DNA of 63,103 nt, filler included, from Candidatus Woesearchaeota archaeon (GTDB lineage Archaea; Nanobdellota; Nanobdellia; Woesearchaeales; J072): NCBI GenBank assembly GCA_003695265.1. It is 6 parts of 6 records of this genome, joined end to end, with 100 filler letters (N's around TTAATTAATTAA, not from the genome) between each part and the next. Parts side by side here need not be neighbours in the genome. Positions count along the whole stretch, not along the records: positions 14,676 to 32,997 come from RFII01000082.1; 5 more parts are not named here. The stretch is one strand, 5' to 3'. A model generated the notes under the pieces. It did not search any database. It saw only the letters and a program-made list of their open reading frames with translations, and had not been told where the DNA came from. Below are positions 3,514-35,845 of this stretch, one piece after another. Each line of letters starts with the position of its first letter. The first letter of the stretch is position 1. The translations under genes and the position numbers were made by a program.

Positions 3514-3598
3514 GCCCCAGTAGCTTAGTGGCTAGAGCAGCCGCCTCGTATCATGCAAAGAAAGCGGCAGGTCGGGGGTTCAACTCCCCCCTGGGGCT
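3514..3598 (+). tRNA. tRNA-Thr(CGT) with 12-nt anticodon-loop intron (3551-3562)
   Basis: Acceptor GCCCCAG/CTGGGGC, anticodon stem GCCGC/GCGGC, loop CT-CGT-A|A, T-arm GGGGG-TTCAACT-CCCCC. Confidence 0.92.
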
Positions 3599-27742: not shown

Positions 27743-28342
27743 CTATTTTATTAGTTTATTTCTTTTTAGAATGTCTTTGTATTCTTTGAAGTCGTCTGAT
27801 TCCTTGAATTTCTTAAGCTGCAGTTTGGAAAGCCTTGATATCCACTTGTGAGAAATTTTTGACAGCTTCTTCATATCATCAAGGACAAGGTCTAATTGCA
27901 GTTTAAACTGTTCTTCTGGGCTGAGTTCATCATCCTTTTTTTCTTCCTCATCAAAATTGTTAATTAGTCTTAATTTTCTTAAGATTTTTGTCAGCAGCAT
28001 TTCCTTCTCTTCTTCTATTTCTTTTTCTATTTCATCAAGCTCTTCATACTCGTCTTTCATCTCTTCAAGAGTTTCTGTATGCGCAATTTCCTCTTTCTCT
28101 TTTTGAATGGCTGCCTCGATTTCTCTTGTCTTTTTTGATTTGAGCAGGTTCTTGAAGAATTCTTTTATGAAAGGCTCGTCTCTTCTTTCAATATGAATTT
28201 TAGAAGTATCGTTTATGTCTGGAACGCATTCTTTTCGTGATTTCTGCTTAAAAGAGAAAAACCCTTTTTTAGTTGGTTCTATTCTGCACCTCAGATACCT
28301 GTCCATTTCATCATTGAATGATTTTCCTATTGTGCTCACCAA
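27743..28342 (-). CDS. Hypothetical acidic coiled-coil protein
   Basis: 199 aa, E/K-rich; divergent from the iteron region. Confidence 0.7.
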   Translation of the reverse strand: MVSTIGKSFNDEMDRYLRCRIEPTKKGFFSFKQKSRKECVPDINDTSKIHIERRDEPFIKEFFKNLLKSKKTREIEAAIQKEKEEIAHTETLEEMKDEYEELDEIEKEIEEEKEMLLTKILRKLRLINNFDEEEKKDDELSPEEQFKLQLDLVLDDMKKLSKISHKWISRLSKLQLKKFKESDDFKEYKDILKRNKLIK

Positions 28343-28384: not shown

Positions 28385-28533
28385 AGTCTCAGAATAGTCT
28401 CAGAAAAGTATTATTAAGTCTCAGACTAGTCTCAAAAGTTCCACAGGAAATGATGGGGTGTCCTCTAAAAAATTAAAATAACTAGTCTCAGACCAGTCTC
28501 AAAAGTTCCACAGGAAGTCTCAGACCAGTCTCA
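28385..28533 (+). promoter_or_regulatory. Iteron array (8x AGTCTCA) with two ORB-like GTTCCACAGGAA boxes; candidate replication origin
   Basis: AGTCTCA at 28385, 28396, 28417, 28428, 28484, 28495, 28516, 28527; GTTCCACAGGAA at 28438 (followed by ATGATGGGG) and 28505; AT-rich spacer about 28466-28482. Confidence 0.6.
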
Positions 28534-28577
28534 GCTTAAGGAAAGGTTTAAATATTTCCAAAGGAATCCAAAGCATT

Positions 28578-28958
28578 ATGATAAATGAGAAGAAGCTGAT
28601 TGAGGCGTTTGAGAAAATCAAAAGGGACAATGATGAAATCAGAAAAGAGATAATGCTCTTAAAGGAGGAGAACAAAAGGCTTTCAATGGAAATAAAGTCA
28701 CTGAAAAGAGCTCCTGTAAACCAGCCGTTATTCCAAAAACAAATCATAAAAAAGATCAACAGGCATCGCAAAGAAATTGTAAAGCAGAAAATAATTGATA
28801 TTTTAAGGACGAAAAATCTAAGCCTGATTGAGCTTAAGGAAATCGTTGTTGATAAGGAGCAGTACTGCTCAAAAGCATCATTCTACCGCTATGTTGATGA
28901 GCTTAAAGACCAAATAATTATTAACGAACAAAAAGTGCTGAGCCTGAGGGAGATATGA
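28578..28958 (+). CDS. Coiled-coil plus winged-helix DNA-binding protein
   Basis: N-terminal heptads; C-terminal LSLIELKE...CSKASFYRYVDEL HTH pattern. Confidence 0.75.
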   Translation: MINEKKLIEAFEKIKRDNDEIRKEIMLLKEENKRLSMEIKSLKRAPVNQPLFQKQIIKKINRHRKEIVKQKIIDILRTKNLSLIELKEIVVDKEQYCSKASFYRYVDELKDQIIINEQKVLSLREI

Positions 28959-29489: not shown

Positions 29490-29642
29490 GGGGACGTAGT
29501 ATAAGCTGGCTAGTACAGCTGGCTCCAGTCATGGAGCGATGAGCGAAAGCGATGATTAAACAGTTGGTGAGTCGTTCTGAGGAAGTCACCAGCAGATCCG
29601 AGAGGCTTTAAAAGTCCGGAAATTCAAATCTCGGCGTCCCCA
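29490..29642 (+). tRNA. tRNA-Trp(CCA) with two introns: anticodon 29529-29587 and T-arm 53/54 29603-29622
   Basis: Acceptor GGGGACG/CGTCCCC, anticodon GCTGG-CT CCA G|A-CCAGC, T-arm CCGAG|TTCAAAT-CTCGG. Confidence 0.88.
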
Positions 29643-33117: not shown

Positions 33118-34206
33118 TCACGGCAGCCAGCTCTTCTCATCCTTAAGCTTTGCAGGCAGGTAATCAGAAATAACAAAGTTGAGGCCGTGCTTTGCAAGCG
33201 CCTGCTGCTCAGCTCTTACTTTCATACTGACAAGCTCTTTCAGTGCTTTCTGCCATTCCTTATGGTGCTGCACGAAAGGGTCGTTTTTTATTCCATCTTT
33301 CACGCGCTTGATGTCAATGTCTTTCAAAGGATGTGTTGGAAGCTTGTATTCAGTAATGTCTTTCGGAGTTATTCCCAAAAATTTTGCTTTGGGAACGCAG
33401 AAGAATTCATTCAGGTGAGCTGCGTTTCCAGAACCAACCTTTAAGGTTCTGTAAATATTAAGATAACCATAAGGATCGCCGTCAGTAAACACATAAACTG
33501 GAAGTTTTTTTTCGTCACTCAGCCTTCTTATGAAGCGCCTGCACGCCCTCGTTGGAACGCCACCCATGCTTATAAGGATGCAGTTTGCTTTTTTCCAGTA
33601 ATTGTGCTTTACGAGCCTTTGGAACATGCCTGCTGTTTCTATAGCTAAAATGAACTTCGCGTTTGTCTCAAACTTTAAGTGCTCAACAGAGCTTGGCACT
33701 GAATAGGCGCCAGAACCCATTTTTGAGCAGTCAATCCTTATTTCTTTTCCTGTATCCTGGTCCTTGTCAATCACAAAGAGCTTGCCGGCGATGTCCCCTC
33801 CTTTCTCCTCAGGTATGAAGCCGAGCTGCTCTCTGTTCACCATCATCATTGCCTCAACGTCATCCATCACAGCGTCGCTCTCAGCCTGCTCTTTAAAGCG
33901 GGCGTCTCCCCAGTTTTTTGAAACGTAGTAAGCTTCTCTTTTTGTGGCTATGTCATCTGTTTCAATAATATTTTTAGAAAGTGCCATCATCCTCAGTGTT
34001 TGCGCAAATGTTTTTATTGTTGAAGCTGTCAAAGTTCTCTGCTTCATCTTGCCGTTGAGCTCAAAGAAGCCTTTTTTCTCATCATAAGTGACATTGGATA
34101 ATGACCGGAGAGGCATTTCTAGCTCAGGAACTTTCTTCCTGATTACTTTTTGGTAAACATCAAGTGCTATTTCCTTAATCTTCTTCGCTGCCTTTGGCAT
34201 TTGCAA
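33118..34206 (-). CDS. top6A: DNA topoisomerase VI subunit A
   Basis: TKREAYY (catalytic Tyr), AIETAG, GVPTRACR, FTDGDPYG, AEQQAL. Confidence 0.97.
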   Translation of the reverse strand: MQMPKAAKKIKEIALDVYQKVIRKKVPELEMPLRSLSNVTYDEKKGFFELNGKMKQRTLTASTIKTFAQTLRMMALSKNIIETDDIATKREAYYVSKNWGDARFKEQAESDAVMDDVEAMMMVNREQLGFIPEEKGGDIAGKLFVIDKDQDTGKEIRIDCSKMGSGAYSVPSSVEHLKFETNAKFILAIETAGMFQRLVKHNYWKKANCILISMGGVPTRACRRFIRRLSDEKKLPVYVFTDGDPYGYLNIYRTLKVGSGNAAHLNEFFCVPKAKFLGITPKDITEYKLPTHPLKDIDIKRVKDGIKNDPFVQHHKEWQKALKELVSMKVRAEQQALAKHGLNFVISDYLPAKLKDEKSWLP

Positions 34207-35845
34207 TTTCCTCTTTATTCTCCTCTTTTCCTAATCTTGCGAGGTTTTCATCATAATCAACGTTCTTCGTCTCATCAAATTCAATTAATTCCAATTTTCC
34301 GCGGCTCTTCTCAAGCGTTTCTTTCAATGATTTTTCAATTTTTTCCTCTTCCAACTTACTTAAGCCAAGAAGCTCCTGCAACGCCTGGCCGACATGGGGT
34401 ATGTATTTCTCGATAAAACTTCTCTTCTTGAACTCCATTGCTACTCTTCTTTTTTTGCCAACATAACTAGAAAGCTTCCTGCCACATTCTTGGAGTGCAA
34501 GTTTAATCTCTTTGATTATCTCAGGATAATGGGCTATTGCCTCTTTGCTTTCTGATGTGAAAGGCACCCACACAGAAGCTATGTGAACAACAATAGTTGC
34601 AGGCCCGACAGGCAACGAGCCCCTGCTCTGCTGCAAGCCGTAAGATTTCCAAGATGTTTCAATAATTGACTTTGTGATTGCGCATGCGCCCTGCTGAAAT
34701 ATTAAGGGAACCCTGTTGGCAAACCTTAATATCCTCACAGTCTTATCTCCAGGCTGGTTTCCACCGTAAGCAATTCCAGCCTCAATAATAAATGGGTTGC
34801 CGCGATAAACAGAAGGTGGTCTTGTTACAGAAGTGTAAAACTCAGCATTAATTTCTTTTCTTAAGCCTTTTTCAAGCTGCGCAGCACCAATTGGTGAGAT
34901 GCAGTCCGTTGGAGGATTCATGATTTTTGTCTTGTTAATCCCTTTCAAAAGCTGCTCTGCCATTTCCCTGCTCATTGCTTTGGGCTTTGTGTTTGGCAAA
35001 AGCGCTGCGTTCTCGCAAATCTCTTTTGCTGTTCCAGCGCCGACCCTTGAGAATTCTGTTGTCAAAAAGCTCTGCAGAGTTCTTGTCTCTGTCCAGCGAA
35101 GCATCTTTATCAAAATTCCTAACTCAACGCCGTAAGGGTGCGGCTTTATTTCTTTAGGCTCTTTAGGAAGCGTATCAACAGCCCTTACAAACATTCTCTG
35201 CTCTCCTCTCGGTGGCTGGTATATTATAGTCACATGCGGGTTTACAATAGCAGTTTCTTTTATGTATTCGTCGATTGACTGGCTTCCACCAATGTAAGAA
35301 CCTTCCAAATCAATCTCGACTTTTGTCCCGTGCTCCTTTTCCCATTCAATAACTTCCTCTTTTAGTATCTCAGGGCTGTTCTTTTGAGTGTTAATGTGAA
35401 GTTCGTAGTAGTGCGCCGGAGATTTTGGGCCTGTTTTTGAGGTTATCTTTGCAGGCCTACCAGTGGTAAGCTGGCCGTACATCACGCTTGCGCTTATGCC
35501 AATCCCCTGCTGACCGCGGCTCATCTTCAATGAATGAAATTTGCTTCCGTACAAAAGCTTTGCAAAAATTTTTGGTATCTGGTTTTTCACAATTCCAGGG
35601 CCGTTGTCCTCAACAGTAACATGGAACCTGTCGTTGCCCATATCAATTACTTCAACAATTATTTCTGGAAGAATGCCTGCTTCCTCGCACGCATCCAGAG
35701 AATTGTCCACAGCTTCTTTTATTGTTGTAAGAAGTGCTTTGCGCTTATTGTCAAAGCCGAGAAGATGCCTGTTTCTGGCAAAGAACTCTGCAACTCCTAT
35801 TTCACGCTGCTTCTGGGCTAATTCCTGAGCGCTTTTTTTAGCCAT
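34175..35845 (-). CDS. top6B: DNA topoisomerase VI subunit B
   Basis: KEAVDNSLDACEE, EDNGPGI, SRGQQGIGIS, RFANRVPL, PFTSESKEA. Confidence 0.97.
   Translation of the reverse strand: MAKKSAQELAQKQREIGVAEFFARNRHLLGFDNKRKALLTTIKEAVDNSLDACEEAGILPEIIVEVIDMGNDRFHVTVEDNGPGIVKNQIPKIFAKLLYGSKFHSLKMSRGQQGIGISASVMYGQLTTGRPAKITSKTGPKSPAHYYELHINTQKNSPEILKEEVIEWEKEHGTKVEIDLEGSYIGGSQSIDEYIKETAIVNPHVTIIYQPPRGEQRMFVRAVDTLPKEPKEIKPHPYGVELGILIKMLRWTETRTLQSFLTTEFSRVGAGTAKEICENAALLPNTKPKAMSREMAEQLLKGINKTKIMNPPTDCISPIGAAQLEKGLRKEINAEFYTSVTRPPSVYRGNPFIIEAGIAYGGNQPGDKTVRILRFANRVPLIFQQGACAITKSIIETSWKSYGLQQSRGSLPVGPATIVVHIASVWVPFTSESKEAIAHYPEIIKEIKLALQECGRKLSSYVGKKRRVAMEFKKRSFIEKYIPHVGQALQELLGLSKLEEEKIEKSLKETLEKSRGKLELIEFDETKNVDYDENLARLGKEENKEEIANAKGSEED

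Follow-up and report, generated by a model that had tools for sequence, protein, structure and literature searches.

Initiator boxes that lie away from the replication origin and are combined with sites for accessory DNA-binding proteins are known from the bacterial loci datA, DARS and crtS, and datA and crtS serve as titration or timing loci for the initiator. Among plasmid centromeres, parC of R1 with its binder ParR is comparable in build to the locus described here. In the archaeon Pyrococcus, the core of the origin recognition box (ORB) comprises TTCC and GAA (PMC1904270, in excerpt), elements common to the ORB of our window. The arrangement ORB(-)/DUE/ORB(+) is the origin pattern in the Ori-Finder-Arch preprint (10.64898/2026.08.15.744077, in excerpt), and the WhiP-type pattern given there has no ORB and has inverted repeats around ucm; the repeats of our window are direct. 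For WhiP and oriC3 of the Sulfolobales, capture from a mobile element has been proposed (PMC3607249, PMC4010727, both in excerpt). A preprint on Nanobdellota (10.64898/2026.05.13.725050) reports 208 complete genomes of this group and has a single-copy wHTH marker, OG0000296; in its main text, the terms "ORB" and "GC skew" occur zero times. The literature searched says next to nothing about how DPANN archaea control the initiation of replication. The same search, which left most subscription journals outside, returned no description of a unit of gene, array and ORB such as the one reported below, and no archaeal initiator-control locus with a dedicated regulator.

We analyzed a stretch of 63,103 nucleotides, filler included (the window), joined from six parts of a Candidatus Woesearchaeota archaeon assembly (GCA_003695265.1). 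A preliminary description had proposed a candidate replication origin in it, with a repeat array, ORB-like boxes and a coiled-coil/winged-helix (wHTH) gene instead of orc1/cdc6.

Architecture of the locus

The array consists of eight direct copies of AGTCTCA, starting at 28385, 28396, 28417, 28428, 28484, 28495, 28516 and 28527 and grouped in four pairs (Table 1). The copies of a pair lie 11 nt apart, the pairs of one half 32 nt apart, and the two halves 99 nt apart when measured between their first copies (67 nt from pair 2 to pair 3), as first described. A 33-nt stretch is duplicated locally (28417-28449 versus 28484-28516, 97%). The 1,055,801-base (1.06-Mb) assembly, which is 94.6% complete and comprises 103 contigs, contains four GTCTCA-N5-GTCTCA pairs, all of them in this array at 28385-28533, and the genome-wide Poisson chance of eight AGTCTCA within 150 nt is about 1e-17. 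A Logan contig spans 27000-30000 unbroken with one differing letter, outside the array; this DNA may derive from the very run in question, so that the contig is not independent. The low probability and the unbroken contig rule out chance and assembly artefact as the origin of the array. A structured RNA at the locus was also rejected, as Rfam gave two sub-threshold matches only. The array ends 6 nt before the sequence that we take to be the BRE/TATA element of the wHTH gene, judging by the archaeal promoter consensus; the model used in a sigma-70 promoter scan does not suit archaeal promoters.

Copies of GTTCCACAGGAA are found at 28438 and 28505. Scored with a matrix trained only on the orc1-locus ORBs of relatives, the first is the second best site in the assembly (28.4 bits), and besides it two sites exceed 17 bits, both on contig C18. 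The second copy scores -7.5, lies within the 33-nt duplication and carries a repeat in the place of the G-string, and it was ruled out as a true ORB on this score. Of the two boxes initially reported, the first is thus a full ORB, whereas the second is reduced to a dyad half. The AT-rich spacer reported between the halves is present, but its length is only 22 nt, whereas the regions between ORBs that were measured at orc1 origins all have 63-771 nt.

The adjacent gene encodes the 126-aa coiled-coil and wHTH protein noted at the outset. Its model (pLDDT 86, from a 23-row alignment) contains a helix of 41 residues (4-44), a helix at 50-78 and a winged helix. The best structural matches were generic winged helices, namely cullin WHB (Z 9.8, rmsd 2.2, 71 aligned) and the Rpa2 winged helix (Z 9.0), with PadR, IclR and MecI following at Z about 8. 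Foldseek with the model gave none at E 0.001, and no family name was obtained above cut-off in Pfam, NCBIfam or PHROGs. The comparison with PDB sequences yielded coiled-coil noise alone, and Atlas matches stayed below 0.9. The predicted complex of Orc1 and the wHTH protein from genome G062 received a score of 0.01, which speaks neither for nor against an interaction.

The DUF192 gene that follows is a neighbor in 23 of 40 short-type loci. The divergent 199-aa acidic protein on the other side is not a conserved partner, with one weak relative found beside a homologous locus.

Three other features of the window were recorded. A tRNA-Trp-like gene was recognized by eye at 29490-29642 (+ strand); it has a long anticodon-loop intron with C/D-box-like motifs, a further intron is probable in the T arm, and ARAGORN and Rfam both missed the gene. 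At 3514-3598 (+ strand), a search without introns called a tRNA-SeC, which became a tRNA-Ser(CGA) with a 12-nt intron once introns were allowed. Two ORFs at 33118-35845 (- strand), presumably topoisomerase VI subunits A and B by the look of their sequence, belong to the next contig and are not physically linked to the array.

Table 1. Features of the locus, in coordinates of the window
Feature	Position	Strand	Basis
Divergent gene for 199-aa acidic helical protein, bounding the intergenic region	27743..28342	-	ORF
Repeat pair 1 (AGTCTCA x2, 11-nt period)	28385..28402	+	sequence
Repeat pair 2, adjoining the ORB on its dyad side	28417..28434	+	sequence
Full origin recognition box, dyad and G-string, core 28440-28458	28438..28461	+	28.4 bits; exact ORB-pattern match
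Short AT-rich spacer, 22 nt, 82% AT	28462..28483	.	composition
Repeat pair 3, within the 33-nt duplication of 28417-28449	28484..28501	+	sequence
Half ORB, dyad only, G-string replaced by repeat	28505..28516	+	score -7.5
Repeat pair 4, directly 5' of the promoter-like sequence	28516..28533	+	sequence
BRE/TATA-like sequence of the wHTH gene (putative)	28540..28554	+	sequence; inference
Gene for 126-aa protein, N-terminal coiled coil and C-terminal winged helix, recognition helix YCSKASFYRY	28578..28958	+	ORF, model, homologs
DUF192 (COG1430) gene, overlapping the wHTH gene at its stop codon	28955..29284	+	ORF/family search

Conservation of the gene, the array and the ORB

Across the order, the coiled-coil/wHTH gene makes up a conserved unit with the array, phased at 11 bp, and the ORB. 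The protein family comprises 645 representatives at 50% clustering; many source records of the homologs bear Woesearchaeota names, and some titles say Methanosarcinales. Of 61 genomes of the order, 41 had a match to the gene (at E <1e-10 in 37), and 24 of the 61, some of them 99-100% complete, had no strong match. In a sample of the phylum, 54 of 121 genomes had a match, all 54 from this order; the sample also included no fewer than 25 genomes from the class's other orders, which had none.

We examined 81 wHTH loci, of which 72 non-redundant loci remained after 8 duplicates were merged and L030, with a helix outside the pattern, was dropped; L240, which looks chimeric, was excluded. Among the 52 loci whose recognition helix reads SKA, GTCTCA was the dominant repeat in 50 (41 with an ORB and 9 without), and two had no array. 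On the proposed check, whether homologs always have AGTCTCA/ORB arrays nearby, a linkage of gene, array and ORB was supported across the order. The single locus with helix SRA has a GTCTCA array and an ORB, so that an ORB is present in 42 of 53 SKA/SRA loci. Where the helix reads SKS, mostly in a longer paralog, GTCCCA/TTCCCA was dominant (15/16) and an ORB was present in one of the 16 loci. The three loci with helix GRT have repeats of the CCGGAC/CCGAAC type, and one has an ORB. As helix class and repeat sequence change together, and as gene and array are linked, the wHTH protein probably binds its own array, which supports as likely its earlier assignment as the iteron binder. The covariation spans three classes and perhaps two evolutionary changes, and a single clade of all SKS proteins was not rejected when 38 of the rows were put to an AU test (p 0.57). 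Locus L011, of the short type with a Ser helix, GTCCCA repeats and ORBs, was considered as an independent switch, which the quick trees and this p value did not establish.

Of the successive repeat spacings up to 40 nt, 115 of 251 measure 11 nt. In the 44 wHTH loci with ORBs, the ORB cluster has a repeat directly at its left edge in 23 and at its right edge in 21, compared with 0 of 53 ORBs at orc1 loci. About half of the loci have a repeat on the dyad side of the ORB, which in orc1 origins is turned toward the unwinding region. One ORB is present in 24 of these loci and two or three in the other 20, where they are co-oriented in every case and 22-107 nt apart. The array is upstream of the wHTH gene in most loci and downstream in 9 of 57, with no conserved next gene in these nine; in 12 of 44 loci, the upstream ORB runs antisense to the gene. 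At L010, L042, L047, L048 and L030, the order of elements would fit a flip of the gene alone between the array and its usual neighbor. We found one array per genome stretch read (our own assembly, all of G062, and parts of G061 and G016); in the array scan, a Cys-rich coding repeat on contig C90 of our assembly also passed, and the array of four in G063 fell below the threshold. Because arrays without an ORB occur in nine SKA and 15 of 16 SKS loci, Orc1 is, as far as these sequences indicate, not essential to the module.

The neighbors of the long-type gene include a methyltransferase (7/9 loci), a second coiled-coil/HTH gene (7/9) and an integrase-like gene (5/9). This second family, of about 180 aa, follows the long-type gene at L017, L018, L020, L022, L024, L025, L027 and L030. 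In our own genome, such a gene of about 180 aa lies directly beside a methyltransferase (G000:C83:700-1950), with no long-type gene or array between them. No ParA/MinD-type Walker A gene was found among the neighbors of 57 wHTH loci (flanks of 1.5-6 kb), and no other motor family was seen among the recurring neighbors; the single ParA/MinD-type ATPase of our genome is on contig C44, unlinked to the array.

A sister subfamily is encoded on seven short contigs (L239, L242-L247), with repeats inside the ORF, translated as SQSQ and ETETK stretches, and with no ORB; the six members tested form one clade in a quick tree. At L239 and L245 the next large gene encodes a P-loop protein of PF27228 (MTBMA_p00010), which we take to be a plasmid Rep-type family, and L239 also carries a NikA-like gene and a resolvase. 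Judged by this gene content, the wHTH/repeat module is present on plasmid-like DNA; the plasmids of PLSDB gave no match. On an 11-kb IMG/VR contig, a full ORB is followed by one GTCTCA (L241:999-1026), with no wHTH gene in the 2 kb covered.

Canonical origins, classes of ORB and strand skew

A full-length canonical orc1 was found in 51 of 60 relatives (E <1e-110), and most also have a divergent paralog. In our own assembly the divergent Orc1/Cdc6 paralog occurs alone and Pfam Cdc6_C gave no match; we read the absence of the canonical gene as an assembly gap. The paralog of our genome (G000:C20:4874-5869), like that of most relatives, has about 360 aa and about 29% identity to canonical Orc1, and no exact ORB was seen at the 25 paralog loci checked, a part of the total.

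Upstream of canonical orc1, an inverted ORB pair was present in 26 of 35 loci, and the DNA between the boxes (63-771 nt) is 70-94% AT. The ORB matrix had been trained on 30 of these 35 loci. Twelve genomes combine a wHTH site bearing an ORB with an examined orc1 locus. The inverted pair was found in eight of them (G004, G007, G020, G030, G034, G061, G063 and G065), contig ends cut the locus in G018 and G055, and no pair was found in G062 and G064, the orc1 of G062 having no inverted ORB partner at 15 bits. The array lies 37-281 kb from orc1 in five relatives with the short type, and 131 and 327 kb away for the long type; no orc1/cdc6 gene is present on the contig of our array. The preliminary description had placed the wHTH gene in the stead of orc1/cdc6 and had named a canonical origin beside cdc6 elsewhere as evidence against its proposal. 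Relatives do have such an origin, eight of twelve genomes have both sites, and the notion of replacement fails. The related idea that genomes with a wHTH site lose the orc1 origin was ruled out by the same eight genomes.

The exact ORB pattern gave 120 matches in 55 of 61 genomes, and the reversed control gave 2. In 37 genomes, 51 of these matches precede canonical orc1; in 34 genomes, another 40 precede tbp-mcm or mcm. The wHTH gene accounts for 23 matches in 14 genomes, and the remaining 6 lie at other places. At tbp-mcm, one or two co-oriented full ORBs precede the genes, always in gene sense; our own genome has such a pair at G000:C18:9561-9668 (- strand), and in G061 the pair accompanies an mcm gene that is 88 kb away from orc1. 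ORBs outside the inverted pair are therefore routine in this order. The position of the ORBs at tbp-mcm suggests that Orc1 controls transcription of mcm and tbp. In these genomes ORBs appear to mark three kinds of site, so that a cluster of ORBs alone should not be taken for an origin.

Strand skew was assessed from G-C residuals at four-fold sites with one- and two-origin fits, a test to which a dormant origin is invisible. Genome G062, a single contig of 909,956 bases that was read whole, fits a single axis at about 570/130 kb. Its orc1 (588 kb) reached |z| 6.1, within the top 5.5% of positions, compared with 2.7 for the wHTH site (869 kb) and 1.9 for the two-origin model. In G016, which has the long type only and of which 400 kb of 1.30 Mb were covered, the fitted axis is at 800 kb, with z 6.4 for orc1 and 0.6 for the array. 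The sign of the skew relative to orc1 is opposite in G062:C1 and G016:C1, the two contigs on which the sign for the order rests. In G061:C1 (520 kb of a 782-kb contig) the skew does not switch at orc1, keeps one sign over about 720 kb and levels off near the wHTH site, where the contig ends. The skew of G063 (560 kb) is weak. The skew check set out at the start thus gave a mixed result, as the axis passes through orc1 and not the wHTH site in G062, a single fully read contig of unusual sign, whereas the skew of G061 flattens near the site.

Possible function and comparison with known systems

The site is probably not a main origin, because its ORB lacks an inverted partner and bears a repeat on the dyad side, and because a long AT-rich region is absent. 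We tentatively favor, with somewhat less than even confidence, a non-firing and self-regulated site for the control of Orc1. The small wHTH protein would oligomerize through its coiled coil, and its winged helix would bind GTCTCA repeats one helical turn apart, as linkage and covariation suggest. The one to three co-oriented ORBs, directly flanked by repeats, would bind canonical Orc1/Cdc6, given their match to the boxes at orc1. The module would keep the replication initiator away from the origin, and the wHTH coat would gate Orc1 occupancy, making a locus of Orc1 titration or timing. Where the array covers the promoter it would be an operator too, tying the wHTH gene (with DUF192 where present) to the state of Orc1. 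That the protein-DNA complex is itself functional is suggested by its variable position, by the presence of one array and by the absence of any conserved target downstream; the conserved and directly abutted ORB points to Orc1 as a client of this complex, and the missing origin geometry together with the coexisting canonical origin disfavors routine firing. A narrower version, possible but doubtful, is that a plasmid-type wHTH/array module clamps Orc1 far from oriC and so sets the amount of free Orc1 or the timing of initiation. The ORBs at orc1, tbp-mcm and the wHTH site would then constitute a three-site Orc1 circuit.

A secondary or dormant origin derived from a captured replicon, at which the wHTH protein on the iterons and Orc1 at the ORB would load MCM, appears rather unlikely. 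It would account for the full-strength ORB in 42 of 53 SKA/SRA loci and for sites that are upstream of, downstream of or inside the ORF, as for WhiP (PMC3607249, in excerpt). It also fits the seven short contigs of the sister subfamily, two of them with the PF27228 gene and one of these also with the resolvase and the NikA-like gene, and the flattened skew of G061, while a dormant origin would leave no skew. An inverted ORB pair is, however, lacking in 20 of 20 multi-ORB loci, the spacer of 22 nt falls short of the 63-771 nt at orc1 origins, and a canonical origin coexists in 8 of the 12 testable genomes. The two-origin model of G062 (z 1.9 versus 6.1) and the one winged helix, unlike the tandem of WhiP or plasmid Rep, weigh against it as well.

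We consider it unlikely that the site is centromere-like, with the wHTH protein coating a split, phased array of the parC/tubC build and positioning the chromosome, self-repression being a by-product and the ORB coupling Orc1 to it. Direct-repeat blocks upstream of the binder gene and over its promoter do recall tubC/TubR (PMC6009700, in excerpt), each genome read has one array, and the coiled coil would, in the model, be free for a partner. The long-type paralog lacking an ORB also has its own array, and the module occurs on plasmid-like contigs. Yet no ParA/MinD-type gene or other recurring motor lies near the 57 loci, and the ATPase of our own genome is unlinked; the distance to orc1 varies (37-281 kb, or 131 and 327 kb for the long type), and the conserved ORB is left unexplained.

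Least probable, and to our mind improbable, is a plain composite operator at which the wHTH protein would shut down its own transcription (and that of DUF192) and Orc1 would be a transcription factor, as it may be at orc1 and tbp-mcm: the 6-nt distance from array to promoter-like sequence, the upstream position in most loci, the gene-sense ORBs that stay with mcm 88 kb from orc1, and the Orc1 paralog that regulates transcription in Saccharolobus (PMC9738581) agree with it, but not the 9 of 57 loci where array and ORB follow the gene and no next gene is conserved, the single array and hence no visible regulon, or the antisense upstream ORB in 12 of 44 loci.

Whichever reading holds, the unit offers one protein and one site, both well defined, and the hypothesis that a single residue sets the specificity, with Ala for GTCTCA and Ser for GTCCCA; this hypothesis is testable with purified proteins even though the organism is uncultivated. 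Should the site fire, it would be a new type of origin; should it segregate DNA, it would be a candidate centromere.

Compared with the canonical Orc1/Cdc6 origins (Pyrococcus oriC, Sulfolobus oriC1), the window shares an ORB of dyad and G-string like those at orc1 in the same order. It differs in that the site is not beside orc1, the ORBs are single or co-oriented, no long AT-rich region is present, and the ORB is set in a phased hexamer array, whereas repeats abut none of the 53 ORBs at orc1. WhiP and oriC3 similarly link a winged-helix gene to its own repeats, in or after the ORF (PMC3607249, PMC4010727, in excerpt). In those excerpts, however, WhiP is a predicted tandem winged helix of crenarchaea and oriC3 is without an ORB and fires without Orc1, while the window has a protein with one winged helix after a coiled coil and a strong ORB. 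The tubC/TubR system likewise has a split array of short direct repeats beside the binder gene and over a promoter (PMC6009700, in excerpt); unlike the tubC and parC systems, the window site has no linked motor NTPase gene, is chromosomal and includes an initiator box. The ORB cluster at dp1 of the Thermococcales (PMC1904270, in excerpt) and the Orc1-2 regulator (PMC9738581) also involve binding by the Orc1 family outside an intergenic origin, although the dp1 cluster is 1.5 kb from oriC in the former source, and the wHTH site lies at a distance of 37-281 kb and would have a further binder of its own. With respect to datA, DARS and crtS, archaeal Orc1 would take the place of DnaA or RctB as the initiator, and the gene for the putative accessory protein lies next to the site. 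In its layout, the wHTH site shares with those loci initiator boxes far from the origin combined with sites for an accessory protein; were it to control Orc1, it would count as the archaeal equivalent of the bacterial initiator-control loci.
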